From a candidate division WOR-3 bacterium (GTDB taxonomy: Bacteria; Hydrothermota; Tepidihabitantia; Tepidihabitantales; Tepidihabitantaceae): a stretch of 64,000 nt of DNA. A model generated the notes under the pieces. That model did no database searches. It was given only the letters and a program-made list of their open reading frames with translations, and was not told where the DNA came from. The translations under genes were made by a program, and so were the position numbers. Below are positions 4,273-43,581 of the stretch, one piece after another. The stretch is from assembly GCA_965648905.1 (NCBI GenBank), contig CBFGIT010000009.1, forward strand, positions 44,090-108,089, read 5' to 3'. Position 1 is the stretch's first letter; each line of letters begins with the position of its first letter.

Positions 4273-4836
4273 CTAGCGGGGCCTCAGTTTCCGACCATGG
4301 GTCCAGGCGAGCACGAGGATATTGAGCAGGCACAGGACAACGGCCGGCGACTGGCGCAGCCGCAGCACGACATAAGCGAACAGCGCTGTCATTCCGAGAA
4401 TCACGACCCAGGCGTCGTTTCTGATACGCAGCAGGAACTTCCCGACCAAGAATGCCGCACCGAGCAGGCAGGGCGCTTCCCAGAGCGTGATACCAGACCA
4501 TACGCCAAAGGTCACGGCAATCGCCTTGCCCCCACGGAACTCAAGGAACGGTGAGAAGGCATGACCCAGCACCGGTGCAATGGCAACCGGTACCAAGGCC
4601 CAACTGCTGACTTGGAGAAACCAGACCGCACAGGCGACCGGGACCGCACCTTTGAGAAAGTCGAACAGGAGCGCCGGGATGCCGATTGCTGGTCCGGCTG
4701 CCTTGAACGCGTTGACTGCACCGGGATTGCCGTCACCAACCTGCTGTATGTCCTTGCCGGCCAGGCGCGCAAGCCAGCAGGAGAACGGCAGTGCGCCGGA
4801 AACAAAGGACACGAGAGTCAGGCCAGCCACGGTCAT
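4273..4836 (-). CDS. PlsY-family acyltransferase
   Basis: GDGNPGAVN, DFLKG, GHAFSPFLEFRGGKAIA motifs. Confidence 0.85.
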   Translation of the reverse strand: MTVAGLTLVSFVSGALPFSCWLARLAGKDIQQVGDGNPGAVNAFKAAGPAIGIPALLFDFLKGAVPVACAVWFLQVSSWALVPVAIAPVLGHAFSPFLEFRGGKAIAVTFGVWSGITLWEAPCLLGAAFLVGKFLLRIRNDAWVVILGMTALFAYVVLRLRQSPAVVLCLLNILVLAWTHGRKLRPR

Positions 4837-5570
4837 GGTGGCAGCACAATCCTCTCTCGAAAAAGGGAATCGTCAAACCCGGAGTTCAACCTGTAGTTGG
4901 AGTACCGGTCTTCGATTTCGATGTGACGGTCGAGCATAGTGAGGATGACCTTGAACCTCAGGTCCAGCATCATCCTGAATCGCACCGGCAGCCAGACGTT
5001 CTGCACACGTTCGTAGTCCAGGGTCATGCCAATGTCGCGGACAACAAAGGGCACCCGGGCCGGTGCGAACTGCATGCCGACAATGTCGAAGCTGTCCTTG
5101 AGCACAAGCGCCCGGCCGCGCACATGGCGGCTGGACTTCTGCCGCGGCTCAAAACCCAGTACCCAAACCGGCATGTCGGGAAACGAGTCGGTTCCCAGAA
5201 GAGAGTACCGATACTCGTCCTTGGTCTCAAGCATCAGGGGCATCCGTGTGTTGCCTGCCACCAGTCCCTTTGACCTGAGATCGTTCACCTCGCGCTCCAG
5301 TTGCCGGCCGAGAAGCTTGTGTCCATCAACTTTCACAGAAAGAATGTCGTGGCGCTGCCGTTCATAGCCTTTCATCGAGACGCGACGGAGGCAGTTCACC
5401 TGCCGCGAGCGGCCCTGCCGCAGGTCGGTCTCAGTGTAGCGGTAGTCAGCGTTATAGCTTATATCCCGGATGCGCTCGCTGAGCACCTGCTGACGGCAAG
5501 ACACGGCCTGGCTGACCGATTCAGCAGTGACCGGCAACTGACCGCGGACCGCGCCGGCTAATAGCAACAT
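4833..5570 (-). CDS. secreted hypothetical protein (beta-rich, LolA-like possible)
   Basis: 245-aa ORF with signal-like start; ATGA overlap with the plsY-like gene; WLPVRF...YSNY tail. Confidence 0.6.
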   Translation of the reverse strand: MLLLAGAVRGQLPVTAESVSQAVSCRQQVLSERIRDISYNADYRYTETDLRQGRSRQVNCLRRVSMKGYERQRHDILSVKVDGHKLLGRQLEREVNDLRSKGLVAGNTRMPLMLETKDEYRYSLLGTDSFPDMPVWVLGFEPRQKSSRHVRGRALVLKDSFDIVGMQFAPARVPFVVRDIGMTLDYERVQNVWLPVRFRMMLDLRFKVILTMLDRHIEIEDRYSNYRLNSGFDDSLFRERIVLPP

Positions 5571-5664
5571 GCTGAGCAGTCTGCGTGGTGTGTAGAACGT
5601 ACTCCACTATGCACCAGGAAACTCCAGATGTCAACTGGGCCGTGATAGATGACGCAGAAGACGT

Positions 5665-6050
5665 CATGATAGTAATTACTATCATGGGCGATGTGGGACG
5701 GCAGCGTGCTAACTAACAATCAGTCAGTAAGTTATGCGGCTGGGACTTCGTCTACCTCCCCGGTCTCCCAAGCCGTATTGTCAGCCATGTTTCAATGAGC
5801 ATGTGGCAGAGTGTTGCCCGGCGTAGCTCTGCATCTCTGTTGCGTGGCCGCACCTCAGGTCTAACCCTGAGCAGTGCCGCACGTAGTTTCACACGCAGCA
5901 GCTCCAGCCCAAACTAGAGCAGAAGCCTATGCTGTTCTGCCCGCAGTTGGGCGTGCACTCAGGTGTCCGTCTGCGTTGGCGGCAAACACGGCTGTTGTGG
6001 CGGTGCTGGTTGCGGCAAGGGCTGTCGCGATGTCGGCAGCGAAGGTCATG
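5665..6050 (+). repeat. Periodic intergenic element copy 1: 22-bp palindrome leader plus 24 x 12-nt array
   Basis: CATGATAGTAATTACTATCATG (5665-5686). Units at 5763+12n start with G in 21/24 and have a pyrimidine second in 24/24. Confidence 0.8.
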
Positions 6051-6074
6051 CGAAGTGACAGCAGCCGCACGCGC

Positions 6075-6102
6075 TTGACTCACCTTGCTCGATTCCTATA
6101 CT
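6075..6102 (+). promoter_or_regulatory. sigma70-like promoter of accD, leaderless
   Basis: TTGACT-N16-TATACT, GTG start 6 nt downstream. Confidence 0.65.
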
Positions 6103-6108
6103 AGCTCC

Positions 6109-6927
6109 GTGCCTGCTCCCACTCGGCCGGTTGGCTCGTCCCAGACGCCGGACGGCATGTGGCTGCGCTGCAACGGCTGCGGCGAGATTCTTTATCGCAA
6201 GACCCTCGAGTCGAACTCGTTTGTCTGTAACCGCTGTAACTACCACTTCCGAATCACGCCCGAGCGCTACATCAAGATACTGCTCGACAACGGCCAGTTG
6301 GGCGAGCTTGACTCTGACCTCGCGCCGGCTGACCCGCTTGGTTTCCCGGACTATCCCAAGAAGCTGAAAGAGGCCCGGGAGAAACTCGGCCGTCCAGACG
6401 GGTTTGTCTACGGCCGCGGTACGATTGGCGGCTGTCCGGTCGTTTTCGGTGCGATGGACTTCAACTTTATCGGCGGCAGCATGGGCTCGGTCGTGGGCGA
6501 GAAGGTGGCGCGCGCCATCCGCCTGGCCCGCACCGAGCGAAGGCCTCTGGTGATTGTCGCCACCTCGGGCGGTGCCCGCATGCACGAAGGTATCTTCTCA
6601 CTCATGCAGATGGCCAAGACCTCAGCCGAGCTCGGCCTATTGCGCCAGGCCCGGGTTCCTTTTATCTCTTTGCCGGTTGACCCGTGTACCGGCGGCGTAT
6701 CGGCATCGTTTGCCATGCTCGGGGATATCAACATATCAGAACCGGGCGCACTCATCGGCTTTGCCGGACGCAGGACCATCGAGGGCACGATCGGCGAGAA
6801 GCTGCCTGAGGGGTTCCAGACCGCGGAGTTCTGCCTGAAGCACGGTGTGCTCGACCTGGTTGTCCACCGGCGCGACCTGCGCGACGCGATTATCAGGCTG
6901 CTCGCGCTGCTCTGGCCCTGGTCCTGA
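6109..6927 (+). CDS. accD: acetyl-CoA carboxylase carboxyltransferase beta subunit
   Basis: W-x-x-CxxC...CxxC zinc finger; FIGGSMGSVVGEK; SGGARMHEG; GGVSASFAMLGD; GFAG; FQTAEF. Confidence 0.93.
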   Translation: MPAPTRPVGSSQTPDGMWLRCNGCGEILYRKTLESNSFVCNRCNYHFRITPERYIKILLDNGQLGELDSDLAPADPLGFPDYPKKLKEAREKLGRPDGFVYGRGTIGGCPVVFGAMDFNFIGGSMGSVVGEKVARAIRLARTERRPLVIVATSGGARMHEGIFSLMQMAKTSAELGLLRQARVPFISLPVDPCTGGVSASFAMLGDINISEPGALIGFAGRRTIEGTIGEKLPEGFQTAEFCLKHGVLDLVVHRRDLRDAIIRLLALLWPWS

Positions 6928-27177: not shown

Positions 27178-27438
27178 TGTGGCGCGCTGCGCGCAGGTCA
27201 AAAGTCAAACTGCAAAGTGCAAAGGTCAAAGTGTCGGACAGCCCGACATTCTGACTTCTGCATTCTGCAATCTGCCTTCTGCCTTCGCGCCGTCAGGCGC
27301 GGCAAATCCCTTTTTCATCAGGACGAGGACTGTGGCGCGCTGCGCGCGCAGGTCAAAGGTCAAGTCGTCGGACAGCCCGACATTCTGACTTCTGCATTCT
27401 GCAATCTGCCTTCTGCCTTCGCGCCGTCAGGCGCGGCA
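27178..27438. repeat. tandem REP-like hairpin repeat with heptamer arms (2 copies)
   Basis: Identical 72-bp cores at 27233-27304 and 27367-27438; GTCAAAR/TGCAAAG heptamers oppose TTCTGMH heptamers. Confidence 0.85.
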
Positions 27439-37657: not shown

Positions 37658-37701
37658 GCCGCGCCCGGGGCGCAGAATGATGAATCCTCGGATTGTTTGC
37701 C

Positions 37702-39606
37702 ATGACCTTCGCCGATAGGGTAGCGGCCGCGCCCGAGTCACCCGGCGTCTACCTGCTCAAGGACGCGCGCGGCCGCGTGCTATATGTCGGCAAAGCGCGC
37801 GTCCTGCGCGAGCGACTGAAGAGCTACATCCAGCCCCAGGATGACCCACGCCTGCGCGCGCTCGTGAGCCGGGTCAAGGACCTGGAGACAATCGTCACGC
37901 GCACCGAAGTCGAGGCGCTGATTCTTGAAGAGAATCTGGTCAAGTTCAAGAAGCCGCGGTATAACGTGCGGATGCGGGACGACAAGAAGTACCCCTACTT
38001 GAAGATAACCACGGCCGAGCCGTTTCCCCGTATCTTCGTGACCCGAAATCTGAAACAGGACGGCTCGGTCTTTTTCGGGCCGTACACTTCGGCCCGCGAG
38101 CTGCGCAAGGCGCTGCGGGCGGTGAAGCGCATCTTCAGGCTGAGAACCTGCAAACGCGAACTGCCTGATGCTCGGCTTGGGACACGATCCGAAACGTCGG
38201 ACGTTTCGGTCATGTCCCGCGCGGCCCGGCCATGCCTCAACTTCGAGCTGAACCGCTGCACCGGGCCATGTGCTGGCCGGCTCACTCAGGAGCAGTACGG
38301 CGAGCAGGTCAAGTATGTGATTGCGTTTCTTTCCGGCCGCTCTGACGAGCTGACCGAGCAGGTCGAGCAGCGGATGTGGGCCGCCTCCAAAGCGCAGGAG
38401 TTCGAGGTCGCGGCGTGCCTGCGCGACCAGCTCATGGCCTTGCGCGAAATCCGCAAGGACCAGCAGGCCGTGCTTCAGGACAAGACCAGCCGGGACGTCA
38501 TCGGCCTGGCCCGGGGCGACAAGGCTGCGGTTGCCGTCCTGTTCCGCGTCCGCGAGGGCAAGATTGTCGCCCGCGAGGAGTATCCGCTCACTGCCGGCAG
38601 AGACGTGCCTGATGCCGAGGTACTTTCGACCGTGGTCCGGTCGGTGCACACGCATACGCACGACATCCCTGAGGAGATTGTCCTGCCCGCTGTCATCGAT
38701 GACGCGGACGTGCTCGAGGCGCTGTTTGCCGAACGCCGGGGCAGGAAGGTAGTTATCCGCGTACCCGAGCGCGGGGAAAAGGTGCGGCTCGTCGAGCTGG
38801 CTCGTGCCAATGCCGAGAAGGCGCTTGTCGAACTTGCGCCTGAGGAGAAGGTGCCGCAGGCCAACCGCGAACTGGCCAAGATTCTCGGGCTTGCTACTGT
38901 GCCGAGGCTGATTGAAGGTGTGGACATCTCAAACACACAGGGCACGAACGCGGTCGGCTCTATCGTCGTGTTCCGCGACGACCGGCCCACCAGGCAGCAG
39001 TACCGGCTGTTCAAGATTCGCGGCGCGAGACCACGCCGCGAAAACGGGGACTGTACCGGATTGCGGCCGCGTCCTCGCGGCCGGGGACTGTCCCCGTTTT
39101 CGTCAAGTCCGGACGATTGCGCGATGATTGAAGAAGTGCTCATGCGGCGCGTGCGCGGTCTGCTGGAGAAGAATCGGCCTCTGCCTGACCTCGTACTTGT
39201 CGACGGAGGCAAAGGCCAGCTCTCCTCTGCAGTCAAGGCCTACGGCCGGTTTGATGCCGACATCCCGATTCTTGGGCTGGCCAAGCGCACTGACACGCTC
39301 TACTACGTTGACGGCCGCGAGATAGCCATCCCTGCTACGTCGCCGGCGCTCAAGCTCCTGAAGCGCATCCGCGACGAGTCGCACCGCTTCGCCATCACCT
39401 TTCACCGCAAGCTGCGCGGCAAGAAGATGGTTGAATCCGAACTTGACACGATTCCCGGACTCGGGCCCGTGCGCAGGAAAGCGCTCATCCAGCACTTCGG
39501 TTCGCTTGACAAGGTACGCCTTGCCTCAGCCGCAGAGATTGCCCGGGTCAAAGGCTTTGGCCCGGCCCTGGCCGATAAGGTATTTCGCGGGTTGCACCCC
39601 GGATAA
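37702..39606 (+). CDS. uvrC: excinuclease ABC subunit C
   Basis: GIY-YIG PGVYL...YVGKA, DDKKYPY, Cys cluster, DISN, DGGKGQ, RDESHRFA, HhH tail. Confidence 0.95.
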   Translation: MTFADRVAAAPESPGVYLLKDARGRVLYVGKARVLRERLKSYIQPQDDPRLRALVSRVKDLETIVTRTEVEALILEENLVKFKKPRYNVRMRDDKKYPYLKITTAEPFPRIFVTRNLKQDGSVFFGPYTSARELRKALRAVKRIFRLRTCKRELPDARLGTRSETSDVSVMSRAARPCLNFELNRCTGPCAGRLTQEQYGEQVKYVIAFLSGRSDELTEQVEQRMWAASKAQEFEVAACLRDQLMALREIRKDQQAVLQDKTSRDVIGLARGDKAAVAVLFRVREGKIVAREEYPLTAGRDVPDAEVLSTVVRSVHTHTHDIPEEIVLPAVIDDADVLEALFAERRGRKVVIRVPERGEKVRLVELARANAEKALVELAPEEKVPQANRELAKILGLATVPRLIEGVDISNTQGTNAVGSIVVFRDDRPTRQQYRLFKIRGARPRRENGDCTGLRPRPRGRGLSPFSSSPDDCAMIEEVLMRRVRGLLEKNRPLPDLVLVDGGKGQLSSAVKAYGRFDADIPILGLAKRTDTLYYVDGREIAIPATSPALKLLKRIRDESHRFAITFHRKLRGKKMVESELDTIPGLGPVRRKALIQHFGSLDKVRLASAAEIARVKGFGPALADKVFRGLHPG

Positions 39607-40578: not shown

Positions 40579-41793
40579 ATGAGAAAGCACTTGTCGCAGG
40601 TCGTTCTAGCGTCTGTGATACTTGCCGGCTGGGTCGTGGCCTCGGCCCAGCAACAGCCGGTGATGAAGTCGGAACTGGTGTCGGCTCAGAACCGGTTTGG
40701 CCTGAACCTTCTGTCCCGACTCACCGAGGCCGACTACGGCAAGAACGTCTTCATCTCGCCTGTGAGTGTCGCGATGTGCCTTTCCATGGTCTACAACGGT
40801 GCGTCGGGCAAGACCCAGACCGACATGGCCCGCGCGCTTGAGCTTTCCGGCATAAGCCTGGGAACGCTCAACCAGACCAGTGCAGCACTGATGCAGGACC
40901 TGCTCGCCGCCGACCCCAAAGTCAAGCTGCAGATTGCCAATTCGCTCTGGGCAAGGAAGGGTATCGAGTTTCAGAAGCCGTTCCTGAGCGCGAACCAGCA
41001 GTACTTCAAGGCGAAAGCGACAACCCTCGACTTTGCTTCACCAGATGCGGCCAGGACCATCAACACCTGGGTCAGCGACAATACCAAAGGTCTTATCCGC
41101 TCGATTGTCGACCGCATCGACCCTCTGGATATCCTGTTTCTTATCAACGCCATCTACTTCAAAGGCACCTGGACCGAGCAGTTCGACAAGGCCCTGACCT
41201 ATGAGCGGGACTTCCACCGACTGGACGGCTCCACGGTGAAGCGTTGGATGATGAACCAGGACGGCAAGTACAACTACCTTGCTGCTGAAGGGTTTCAGGC
41301 AGTCAGCCTGCCTTATGGCTCAGGACGGCTGAGCATGTACCTGTTCGTGCCGGAGAAGAAAGACGGCCTGCCCCAACTGCTTGAGCAGTTGACTGCCTCG
41401 AACTGGGAAAAGTGGCTTTCTGGGTTCTATCGGATGAGCGGCGATGTGGTTCTGCCGCGCTTCAAGCTCGAATACGAGGCGTCGCTGAATCAGGCGCTCA
41501 AGGCACTGGGTATGGCCGATGCGTTCAACCCGAGTCAGGCCGACTTCTCGAAGATGGTGAAGCCGCCGATTCAGGCCTACATCAGCGAAGTGAAGCACAA
41601 GACGTTCGTCGAGGTCAACGAAGAAGGCACTGAGGCGGCGGCTGTGACCTCGACCCGAGTTGCCATGACCGCCATGCCCCCACGGCAGGAGAGGTTCTCG
41701 CTCGTCGCGGACCGGCCTTTCCTCTGTGCCATCAGAGACAACACCACTGGCGCGATTCTTTTCATCGGCGCTATCTACGACCCGGAGCAGTAG
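40579..41793 (+). CDS. secreted serpin
   Basis: NVFISPVS, NAIYFKGTW, VNEEGTEAAA hinge, ADRPF; AAGGAG RBS; signal peptide. Confidence 0.93.
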   Translation: MRKHLSQVVLASVILAGWVVASAQQQPVMKSELVSAQNRFGLNLLSRLTEADYGKNVFISPVSVAMCLSMVYNGASGKTQTDMARALELSGISLGTLNQTSAALMQDLLAADPKVKLQIANSLWARKGIEFQKPFLSANQQYFKAKATTLDFASPDAARTINTWVSDNTKGLIRSIVDRIDPLDILFLINAIYFKGTWTEQFDKALTYERDFHRLDGSTVKRWMMNQDGKYNYLAAEGFQAVSLPYGSGRLSMYLFVPEKKDGLPQLLEQLTASNWEKWLSGFYRMSGDVVLPRFKLEYEASLNQALKALGMADAFNPSQADFSKMVKPPIQAYISEVKHKTFVEVNEEGTEAAAVTSTRVAMTAMPPRQERFSLVADRPFLCAIRDNTTGAILFIGAIYDPEQ

Positions 41794-41940
41794 GCCGGTA
41801 CTGCGGCGCGGCTGCGCGCGTCAGCAGCGCGCCAGCAGCCCGGCCCGGCGCAGAATCTCGGCATTCATCCGGTACGAATCAGCGTGCCGTGTGTGTCCAA
41901 ACCAGGCGGCTGGAGACGCGCGCACCTAGCTGTCAGGACA

Positions 41941-42000
41941 TGGTTCGTTCCTGTTCCGATTGGCGCAGCGCAGGTTCCTGGGGTTGTTGTTCCGGGAACC
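41941..42000 (-). mobile_element. DGR template repeat fragment (relic)
   Basis: GGTTCCCGGAACAACAACCCCAGGAACCTGCGCTGCGCCAATCGGAACAGGAACGAACCA aligns ungapped to 42511-42570; 13 of 17 mismatches are at TR adenines. Confidence 0.8.
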
Positions 42001-42017
42001 GCGGCGCAGACACCGGC

Positions 42018-42319
42018 CGACGCCACTGTTCGATTGGCTGTCCTGACTGCTGCTTGCACGACTGTTTGAGTTTCGGCGCACGACATCGCACGCGGCACGA
42101 CTCGAAACAAGACTCCGGGTGGTTCGTGAACAGACACGTGCGACACCATGTCAAGCAAGGCCACATGGCACGCCTGCTCAACATCATCCCCAAGTGGGCG
42201 TCCGACTACTGCCTGGGAAGCCGGGGAGTCTTGCCGCCATCGTTATTTCTATCGCTTTGACCTGCCGTCACTTAGTTCGATTTCAGCGTATCTGGAGCGT
42301 GATAGTTATTACTGTCATG
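42018..42319 (-). repeat. Periodic intergenic element copy 2: palindrome leader plus 17 x 12-nt array
   Basis: Palindrome variant at 42298-42319, 69-nt gap, CTCCCCGG motif; units start with a purine in 16/17 and have a pyrimidine second in 15/17. Confidence 0.75.
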
Positions 42320-42390
42320 GGCCCAGTCACCGACCAAAAGCTGCAGGCTGGCGGCTGTCGGCTGCAGGCTGCCCGCCGTTTTTGCGGCCG

Positions 42391-42411
42391 AGCGGCGGCT
42401 TCGCCGCCGCT
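42391..42411. other. perfect hairpin about 50 nt downstream of the DGR target gene
   Basis: AGCGGCGGC-TTC-GCCGCCGCT. Confidence 0.6.
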
Positions 42412-42462
42412 AGAGGAAGACCAGATACTCAGATTTCCAGATTACCAGATTCACAGATAAGA

Positions 42463-43581
42463 CTACTGACGCAAGGAACAACGGAAGCCCAGACCGCCGT
42501 CCCGGTACGAAGGGCCGCCCCCGGCCCGATTAGCGCAGCGCAGGTACCTGGCACCGTAGTACCAGGAACCGCCACGGTTGACGCGGAACGAGCCAGACGA
42601 CGGCCCTTCCGGGTTGTTGCTCGGGCTTGTGCTGTAGTAGTTCTCGCCATACCAGTCATTGCACCACTCCCAGACATTGCCTGCCATGTCCAGACAGCCA
42701 TAGGGCGAAGCACCGGCAGGATACGTGCCAACCGGCGCAGTGTACAGATAGCCGTCATCATAGCCACTGATAACCGTCCAGTTCGGAAACTGCCGTTTTG
42801 CCGCTTCGTCGACAAAGTTGCCGTTGCGGCTGGAACCGGGCGCGCTGTTGCCCCAAGGATACTGCCGAGCGTCAGTGCCACGGGCTGCTTTCTCCCATTC
42901 GGCCTCGGTCGGCAGCCGCTTGCCCGCCCAGTCACAGTAGGCCTTGGCATCGTTCCACGACACGAGCACAACCGGGTGGTTTCTCGTGGCGTAACTGTAG
43001 TAAGTGCGCCAGCTCACTCCTTTCTTGTCTATCCACTTTGATGAATCCTTGTCGCAGACATAGCCTGAGCCGAGCCGCTCAGCATCAGTCTGGTGGCCGG
43101 TCGCCTTCACAAACCGCTCGAACTGCTCGTTCGTCACCTCGTACTTGTCGATGTAGTACTCGCTCAAGTAGACCTTGTGTTGCGGCCGCTCGTCGTTATC
43201 GCCCTCGCCCTCCGGACTGCCCATCCAGAATTCACCGGCCGGGATTCGTATCATCATCGACGAGTCTCTGAGCCAGAGGATTTCGTCATAGCCCTGGGCG
43301 TTGCGGCCCCGCGAGACATACTTTGCCCCGGCCAGAGCTGCTGGCTGTGAGCTCGTGGCTGTTGGCGCCTTGGGTTTGGGCTTGGGCTTCTCGACCGGCT
43401 TGAGCCGGACCGGGCCGCCCGCGGAGTCCTCGCACTCGGCGCAGAAGTTCTGGTCGTCGTCGTACTCCCTGCCGCACTTCGGACACTTCTTCGCGCCAAG
43501 GAACACGAGGGCAAGAGCGAAGAGGAGAATGACGAACGCCAACCGCTGCCCGGCCGTCAAGATAACTCTTTGCCTCGGCAT
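42463..43581 (-). CDS. FGE-sulfatase/CLec-fold protein with N-terminal TM and zinc ribbon; DGR target with C-terminal VR
   Basis: PAGEFWMGS, EVTN, HPVVLVSWNDA, RLPTEAEWEKAARG, DMAGNVWEW, RGGSW...GFRC. Confidence 0.9.
   Translation of the reverse strand: MPRQRVILTAGQRLAFVILLFALALVFLGAKKCPKCGREYDDDQNFCAECEDSAGGPVRLKPVEKPKPKPKAPTATSSQPAALAGAKYVSRGRNAQGYDEILWLRDSSMMIRIPAGEFWMGSPEGEGDNDERPQHKVYLSEYYIDKYEVTNEQFERFVKATGHQTDAERLGSGYVCDKDSSKWIDKKGVSWRTYYSYATRNHPVVLVSWNDAKAYCDWAGKRLPTEAEWEKAARGTDARQYPWGNSAPGSSRNGNFVDEAAKRQFPNWTVISGYDDGYLYTAPVGTYPAGASPYGCLDMAGNVWEWCNDWYGENYYSTSPSNNPEGPSSGSFRVNRGGSWYYGARYLRCANRAGGGPSYRDGGLGFRCSLRQ

Follow-up and report, generated by a model that had tools for sequence, protein, structure and literature searches.

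Phased arrays of 12-bp units tied by position to capsid-fold genes in candidate division WOR-3 bacteria

We analysed an intergenic element at positions 5665-6050 of a 64,000-nt stretch of DNA from a candidate division WOR-3 bacterium (the window). The element proved to be real and non-coding, and it is linked by position to capsid-fold genes. This copy has lost its gene and keeps a perfect putative operator between two host promoters. We consider it fairly probable that an HTH domain binds the palindrome of this element and phases a capsid-type filament over ~24 x 12 bp, the element itself being the solo, cis-acting half of a cassette.

An earlier note, made from the letters alone, had described a perfect 22-bp palindrome followed after 69 nt by CTCCCCGG and 24 units of 12 nt, and re-measurement returned this layout, with the palindrome at 5665-5686 and CTCCCCGG starting at 5756 (Table 1). 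Its account of the units also held: position 1 is G in 21/24 units, position 2 is a pyrimidine in 24/24, and the remaining ten positions vary, all 24 units being distinct and 26% identical to one another at positions 3-12. The binomial p of 2.8e-11 at the best period was matched by none of 300 dinucleotide shuffles, and the observed 21 GY by none of 20,000 in-frame codon shuffles (maximum 19). Identity within the array amounts to 0.40, 0.38 and 0.42 at lags 12, 24 and 48, compared with 0.20-0.30 at other lags up to 25. The in-register frame contains stops, as the note had stated. Structure folding of the array gave nothing convincing (z of -1.2 as DNA and -2.4 as minus-strand RNA), an Rfam search of the element returned no match, and no RNA run was listed for it among the sequencing runs checked. 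Contigs from one sequencing run span 5338-5701 and 5868-6419 gap-free, at ~92-93% identity and shallow depth.

Table 1 Features of the element, its flanks and its second copy, in window positions
Feature	Position	Strand	Remarks
LolA-like / DUF5686-like gene	4833..5570	-	weak Pfam matches, below cut-off; host flank
Promoter of the left gene, sigma70-like TTGACA-17-CATAGT	5606..5634	-	host; similar promoter in G182 without palindrome or array
22-bp perfect palindrome	5665..5686	.	putative operator of an XRE-HTH/SIRV-fold fusion gene; gene deleted at the window copy
69-nt spacer	5687..5755	-	carried the promoter of the cassette gene now missing; its -35 box is degraded in the window copy
C/G-tract boundary motif (CTCCCCGG...CCCA)	5756..5774	+	gene-proximal array end; in 8/8 palindrome copies
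Phased non-coding array, 24 x 12 bp	5763..6050	+	GY at unit positions 1-2
accD promoter, sigma70-like TTGACT-16-TATACT	6075..6102	+	24 nt past the last unit; host sequence; kept in G182 without array
accD, acetyl-CoA carboxylase carboxyltransferase beta	6085..6927	+	Pfam Carboxyl_trans, Zn_ribbon_ACC; host flank
Second window copy	42006..42319	-	palindrome (42298-42319) differing at 3 positions, 69-nt spacer, boundary motif, ~18 units

The element occupies the gap between two back-to-back sigma70-like promoters, those of accD, whose real start is probably the GTG at 6109, and of the LolA-like gene. In the congeneric genome G182 the accD promoter is conserved and the site is empty, and accD and the LolA-like/DUF5686-like gene lie on different contigs. 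Among 30 family genomes an array is present at accD in only two, the other 28 accD loci lacking one. The second case, locus L100 of genome G187, is an array of ~26 units with a C/G-tract leader that lies 50-350 nt upstream of accD and ends just before its -35 box. It has the same orientation as the window array and is unrelated to it in sequence (20-32% identity in any register). The two accD arrays may thus reflect repeated insertion, or an old site that keeps only its phase.

The second window copy lies within a DGR remnant (41793-43581), between an FGE-sulfatase gene (42463-43581) and a 63-nt TR fragment (41940-42002) beyond which lies the 3' end of an RT gene. This fragment is 92% identical to the TR of an intact DGR in the same genome (G000:C3:87170-92431), which comprises an avd-like gene, the TR, the RT and two targets; the variable region of the FGE-sulfatase gene matches this TR as well. 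Elsewhere in the window, intergenic heptamer-type short repeats with a duplicated 85-nt block occupy 27220-27438 and 42340-42470, a uvrC-like ORF (37693-39606) contains an in-frame insert (RRENGDCTGLRPRPRGRGLSPFS) resembling a palindromic element, and a BrxC/BrxD-type ATPase gene (324-1736; E 4.7e-48) adjoins an unannotated 306-aa ORF. All named homologues of the neighbouring and capsid-like proteins belong to candidate division WOR-3 bacteria.

The dispersed family proposed in the note could be confirmed. The genome carrying the window (G000) has eight copies of the palindrome and G182 nine, and the other 270 genomes searched in the phylum have none; within the genome collection, exact copies numbered six, all in one assembly. 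A metagenome search with the palindrome alone retrieved 32 stretches, one of which (L154) has the boundary motif, and the rest look like chance. In all eight G000 copies the palindrome is spaced 67-70 nt from the motif. Furthermore, a profile search recovered 27 homologous arrays in G000 (family 1; the count leaves out a 28th, weak match that is out of register), which have several leader types and mostly leaders other than the palindromic one. A leader-free scan of the same genome yielded 101 strand-level clusters at period 12, compared with 0-10 at non-multiples of three and 5-44 at other multiples of three, and exposed further array families.

Two of these are younger families of ~10-13 copies each, located on C3, C5, C18, C21, C23, C25, C29 and C39 and on C2, C5, C6, C7, C11, C17, C18, C45 and C57. 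In each of the two, a single array precedes a further HTH fusion gene (C8:39316; C2:68918), and an insertion interrupts one of the copies on C29. Additional 12-periodic tracts, belonging to other families, are found close to family-1 arrays at L021:2520-2800, G000:C43:13454-13645, C49:5785-6022 and C8:7017-7292, and at L021 a capsid-like gene is apparently flanked on both sides by such tracts. The unit consensus differs widely between genera, with GY per 12 nt retained. The exact GYx11 pattern occurs in 37/66 genomes of the order, compared with 12/206 others in the phylum, which have at most 30 overlapping matches each, those listed being ordinary repeats. This pattern also catches period-6 repeats, and a reversed-pattern control is high in the same genomes and is not independent.

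Small ORFs beside some leaders bore what we took to be a resemblance to the SIRV2 coat protein. A profile of 12 of these small capsid-like proteins returned Adnaviria coat proteins in 7/8 PDB rows (best E 5.7e-5). An AF2 model of a small protein (pLDDT 94) gave Adnaviria coat proteins in all of the top ten Foldseek PDB rows, with an r.m.s.d. of 1.3 Å over 76 residues to 3f2e and E-values of 0.23-2.2, none below 0.001, and the viral structure library agreed with this match. For the small proteins Pfam, PHROGs and ESM Atlas yielded nothing useful, and a single-sequence PDB search no matches. The scores are each modest and all top matches agree; these models predict an alpha-helical major capsid protein of the SIRV fold. 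The family has 13 matches in G000 and 193 representatives at 50% identity. Its genes are found in 65/66 genomes of one order and in 0/206 others in the phylum, and fusions of an XRE-HTH to the SIRV fold in 56 of the same 66.

The gene beyond the palindrome on C1 of G000 (P0001) encodes an XRE HTH (Pfam HTH_31, E 2.6e-10) and is truncated after the first capsid-like domain, and its intact relatives of ~380 aa consist of an XRE HTH and two capsid-like domains. With a deeper fusion profile, the capsid-like profile matches each of the two C-terminal domains (91%, E 1e-6; 94%, E 2e-7); a first fusion profile of six sequences had given 6%. A model of the fusion aligns to XRE proteins (Z 11.9) and to AFV1 ORF132 (Z 11.8, 1.5 Å, 80 aa), values below the Z of 13 under which matches can be common and unspecific for helical bundles; for the full-length fusion, all matches listed by Foldseek were HTH proteins. 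The Pfam and structural matches identify the N-terminal domain as an XRE-type HTH. Moreover, the paired genes and fused tandem domains suggest that the capsid-like proteins dimerise.

P0061, P0110, P0117 and others are head-to-tail fused capsid-like dimers of ~240 aa without HTH, and fused capsid dimers of a similar kind have been reported in archaeal Demeterviridae (10.1101/2025.08.23.671958). A further module, which has no clear array, combines capsid-like genes with a neighbouring ECF-sigma-like gene and an ORF judged by eye to be HPr-like; it occurs at G000:C10:73278-75959, C52:13-2838 and C1:182460-184343 and at L059 and L060.

To relate arrays to genes, the best locus of 30 genomes was sampled per gene class, keeping loci whose flank was long enough. 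On the upstream side, a period-12 array is present at 14/25 fusion genes and at 10/24 capsid-like loci (10/19 paired, 0/5 single), and on the downstream side at none (0/25 and 0/29); periods 9-11 and 13-15 gave one match in all near these genes. Thus, the co-occurring genes that the note had suggested looking for exist, with the arrays specifically upstream of HTH-fusion and capsid-like genes. About half of the sampled gene loci show no detected array, and in the reverse direction 3/19 loci picked by array had a profile match. Within G000, 3/27 family-1 arrays adjoin a capsid-like or fusion gene, most arrays being solo. Genes without a GYx11 match are carried by 29/66 genomes of the order, and array and gene counts correlate with a Spearman coefficient of 0.75, some counts being lower bounds and the genomes related. 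Related G/C tracts ~110 nt upstream of fusion genes were seen by eye in other genera.

The position of the palindrome is best seen in the intact cassette of G182 (L109), where it lies 2 nt after TTGACA and 17 nt before the fusion start codon, so that the promoter (TTGACA, 17 nt, TATCAT) has its -10 hexamer inside the palindrome. On C1 of G000 it is found 20 nt before the truncated P0001, with TTGACA 2 nt away; unlike these two, the window copy has no TTGACA at this distance. Pairwise identity of the palindrome among the eight G000 copies is 95%, compared with 32% and 35% in the flanking 22 nt, although seven of the eight have no adjoining fusion gene. Because of the promoter position and this conservation after gene loss, we read the palindrome as a putative operator of the HTH protein. 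Strong palindromes lie upstream of 14/29 fusion genes, compared with 14% of random windows, with sequences differing between genera, and subgroups with similar HTH recognition helices pair with similar palindromes as judged by eye. The XRE cassette thus appears to have a palindromic operator overlapping its own promoter. In the note the palindrome had figured as the leader of the array; it would instead serve as operator for a gene whose transcription leads away from the array.

An intact cassette comprises the array of ~24 x 12 bp, a G/C tract, a promoter with its palindromic putative operator and then the gene or genes, either one fusion of an XRE-HTH with two SIRV-fold domains or a pair of capsid-like genes. 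In the binding model that we favour, an HTH dimer would bind the palindrome and, because the palindrome overlaps the -10 box, repress its own gene. The HTH would also anchor capsid-like pseudo-dimers, which would polymerise along the array, starting at the G/C tract, with one dimer for every 12 bp. This would produce a short nucleoprotein filament of viral type with a defined start, register and length (~290 bp), possibly in A-form. G/C tracts favour A-form, and in SIRV2 a dimer covers 12 bp of DNA. The array period likewise equals the per-dimer footprint of AFV1, whose heterodimer covers 12 bp of A-form DNA (PMC5517147). Of the readings offered in the note, the phased protein-binding platform is therefore strengthened, through the 12 bp per dimer of the viral relatives and the specific location of the arrays upstream of SIRV-fold capsid-like genes. 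Counting against the binding model, the family-1 unit profile is not two-fold symmetric.

At solo copies the proteins would be supplied in trans, and such arrays could occlude or insulate adjoining host promoters, which for the element studied here belong to accD and the left gene. An outward-facing promoter directly follows nine of the 27 family-1 arrays and an inward-facing one none of them, compared with 1.9% of random windows, which were not intergenic-matched. Promoter control by the arrays is therefore plausible, but the accD site is filled in only 2/30 family genomes. We infer the binding, function and mobility of the cassette. A wider reading, which we put forward tentatively as one possibility, is that a domesticated Adnaviria coat serves a bacterial order as addressable chromatin: HTH-capsid fusions with lineage-specific operators would start A-form filaments, fixed in register and length, on dozens of phased 12-bp arrays next to host promoters, and the arrays would also let cassettes spread, possibly in filamentous particles. 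If true, no sequence code for an Adnaviria-type coat would have been known before, nor any system in bacteria derived from Adnaviria.

The main rival is compatible with the binding model and differs in purpose. It takes the arrays as packaging or assembly-origin signals of satellite or transfer-agent-like cassettes, which would be coated into filamentous particles by their own capsid-like proteins or by a WOR-3 adnavirus, solo arrays being by-products. This appears unlikely to us. It would account for the capsid fold with its paired or fused pseudo-dimers as in Adnaviria, for young families in 10-13 places that are mostly 85-95% identical along the whole array, for the patchy presence at orthologous sites, and for several capsid-like loci that sit among defence and toxin-antitoxin genes. 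However, the 119 neighbour ORFs within ~1.5 kb around 60 loci included no gene for an integrase, a transposase, replication or a glycosyltransferase; these ORFs were selected from 218 called, minus the family's own genes and overlapping frames, and many have no Pfam match. Two narrow queries of IMG/VR revealed no relatives, which is weak evidence. An HTH fusion would moreover be unusual for a major coat protein, and genes present in nearly every genome of the order (65/66) look more like a resident family.

Quite improbable, in our judgement, is a selfish or neutral MITE-like repeat, in which a 12-mer minisatellite diverged in the promoter region of a regulator gene and then spread, the match to the capsid footprint being coincidental. 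The lineage does grow many 6- and 7-mer repeats, most copies are solo, and some arrays are more homogeneous, with 64-65% unit identity in L046 and L043 compared with 31% in family 1, which makes tandem duplication a likely origin of the arrays. Yet 12 is the only period found, and the arrays occupy the upstream side alone, at two different classes of capsid-fold gene; the unit number is held near 24; the palindrome stays nearly identical after gene loss; and the G at position 1 is kept while the rest drifts. In one young family of 13 copies, the sole source of the young-family gap, column and codon statistics given here, position 1 changes least (0.05, compared with 0.11-0.29 elsewhere in the unit).

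The transposon-end version of the note's binding platform looks unlikely, as no terminal inverted repeats, fixed ends or target duplications were seen, nor any transposase or integrase among the 119 neighbour ORFs. Two young families aligned with their flanks show ragged ends by eye among the rows listed, and a MITE or transposon end was rejected on this basis. A classical minisatellite was likewise rejected, in agreement with the note, on the 26% identity of the window units at positions 3-12, some relatives reaching 64-65%.

Very improbable and largely refuted is a decayed ORF of a tetrapeptide-repeat protein, which the note had named as an outcome that would overturn its claim. Family 1 has a three-base sub-periodicity with Ala/Val every fourth codon and, in four frames, 42-52 stops, below the forward shuffle expectation of 69 ± 8, and 8/13 copies of the young family are open in register. 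Against this, stop-free family-1 arrays number only 0-6/27 in any of six frames. The ratio of synonymous to non-synonymous changes in register is 641/1590 in the young family, indicating no coding constraint, and those frames in which synonymous changes are more numerous are interrupted by stops in most copies; arrays of other genera translate to unrelated sequences. A tetrapeptide-repeat gene, having neither a conserved open frame nor a synonymous bias, was thus rejected. Gaps measure 12 or 24 nt in 34/119 cases among 42 close family-1 pairs and exactly 12 nt in 28/35 cases in the young family. Given the stops, the lack of synonymous bias and the whole-unit gaps, the constraint is therefore on DNA phase and not on a protein.

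A memory array, in which a machine adds 12-nt micro-spacers next to a leader as the note had envisaged, draws on the differences between all units within an array and on some copies that differ by one leader-adjacent unit in nucleotide alignment, but it is scarcely credible: homology among family-1 arrays runs unit for unit (identity of 0.42 at unit lag 0 versus 0.30 at lag 5; best lag 0 in 171/351 pairs), unit indels are scattered over units 6-24 with only 8/137 in units 2-5 beside the leader (pairs not independent), length is near-constant, and no candidate integrase lies among the 119 neighbour ORFs. Since the homology is by position and the indels are not leader-polar, spacer acquisition is unsupported, and these copies show no sign of polar unit addition.

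A literature search found no description of the system; subscription journals and supplements outside that search could list these proteins. Capsid-fold genes across a bacterial order extend the SIRV fold to bacteria and point to gene control or a selfish element built on a viral coat, and in our framing the phased arrays offer a handle on what sequence starts and phases an A-form DNA coat.

Among known systems, MITEs, REP/BIME and ERIC are non-autonomous dispersed repeats, and the WOR-3 arrays are likewise intergenic, multi-copy and patchy between relatives; unlike those, they have no terminal inverted repeats, fixed ends or target duplications and no Rfam match. With CRISPR arrays they share a leader followed by fixed-length units. 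However, their units have no conserved repeat and show no polar growth, which together with the absence of an Rfam match led us to reject a CRISPR-like adaptive array, as the note had done. ParB/parS and H-NS silencing are nucleate-and-spread DNA coats, and the WOR-3 system would share their logic of a specific site recruiting a protein that spreads over neighbouring DNA. Its fold is unrelated to theirs, and its path carries a 12-bp phase code and a fixed length. Autoregulated XRE repressors such as restriction-modification C proteins, HipB and phage cI have in common with the WOR-3 fusion the N-terminal XRE fold and a palindrome over their own promoter. Unlike them, the fusion has two capsid-fold domains as its C-terminal part, and the cassette has a 290-bp phased array ~70 nt upstream of the operator.

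The Adnaviria nucleocapsid, in which the major capsid proteins of SIRV2, SSRV1, AFV1, SFV1 and SIFV lie on A-form DNA, shares the SIRV fold with the WOR-3 proteins, whose paired or fused paralogues resemble the AFV1 heterodimer just as the array period matches its footprint. Viral Adnaviria coats cover the whole genome and are not known to depend on sequence, whereas the WOR-3 genes are linked to phased sequence. In further contrast to the viral coats, the WOR-3 protein is fused to an XRE-HTH, and its genes are multi-copy on a bacterial chromosome without a viral gene context, as no replication, glycosyltransferase or minor structural genes were found among the 119 neighbour ORFs of 60 loci and the G000 loci are flanked by host genes. 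Adnavirians have been described as unconnected to bacterial viruses (PMC10848233) and as archaea-specific (PMC13700489), whereas the WOR-3 family is confined, among the phylum genomes surveyed, to one order of a bacterial phylum. Taken together, the system would combine the working of an Adnaviria nucleocapsid with that of an autoregulated XRE repressor.
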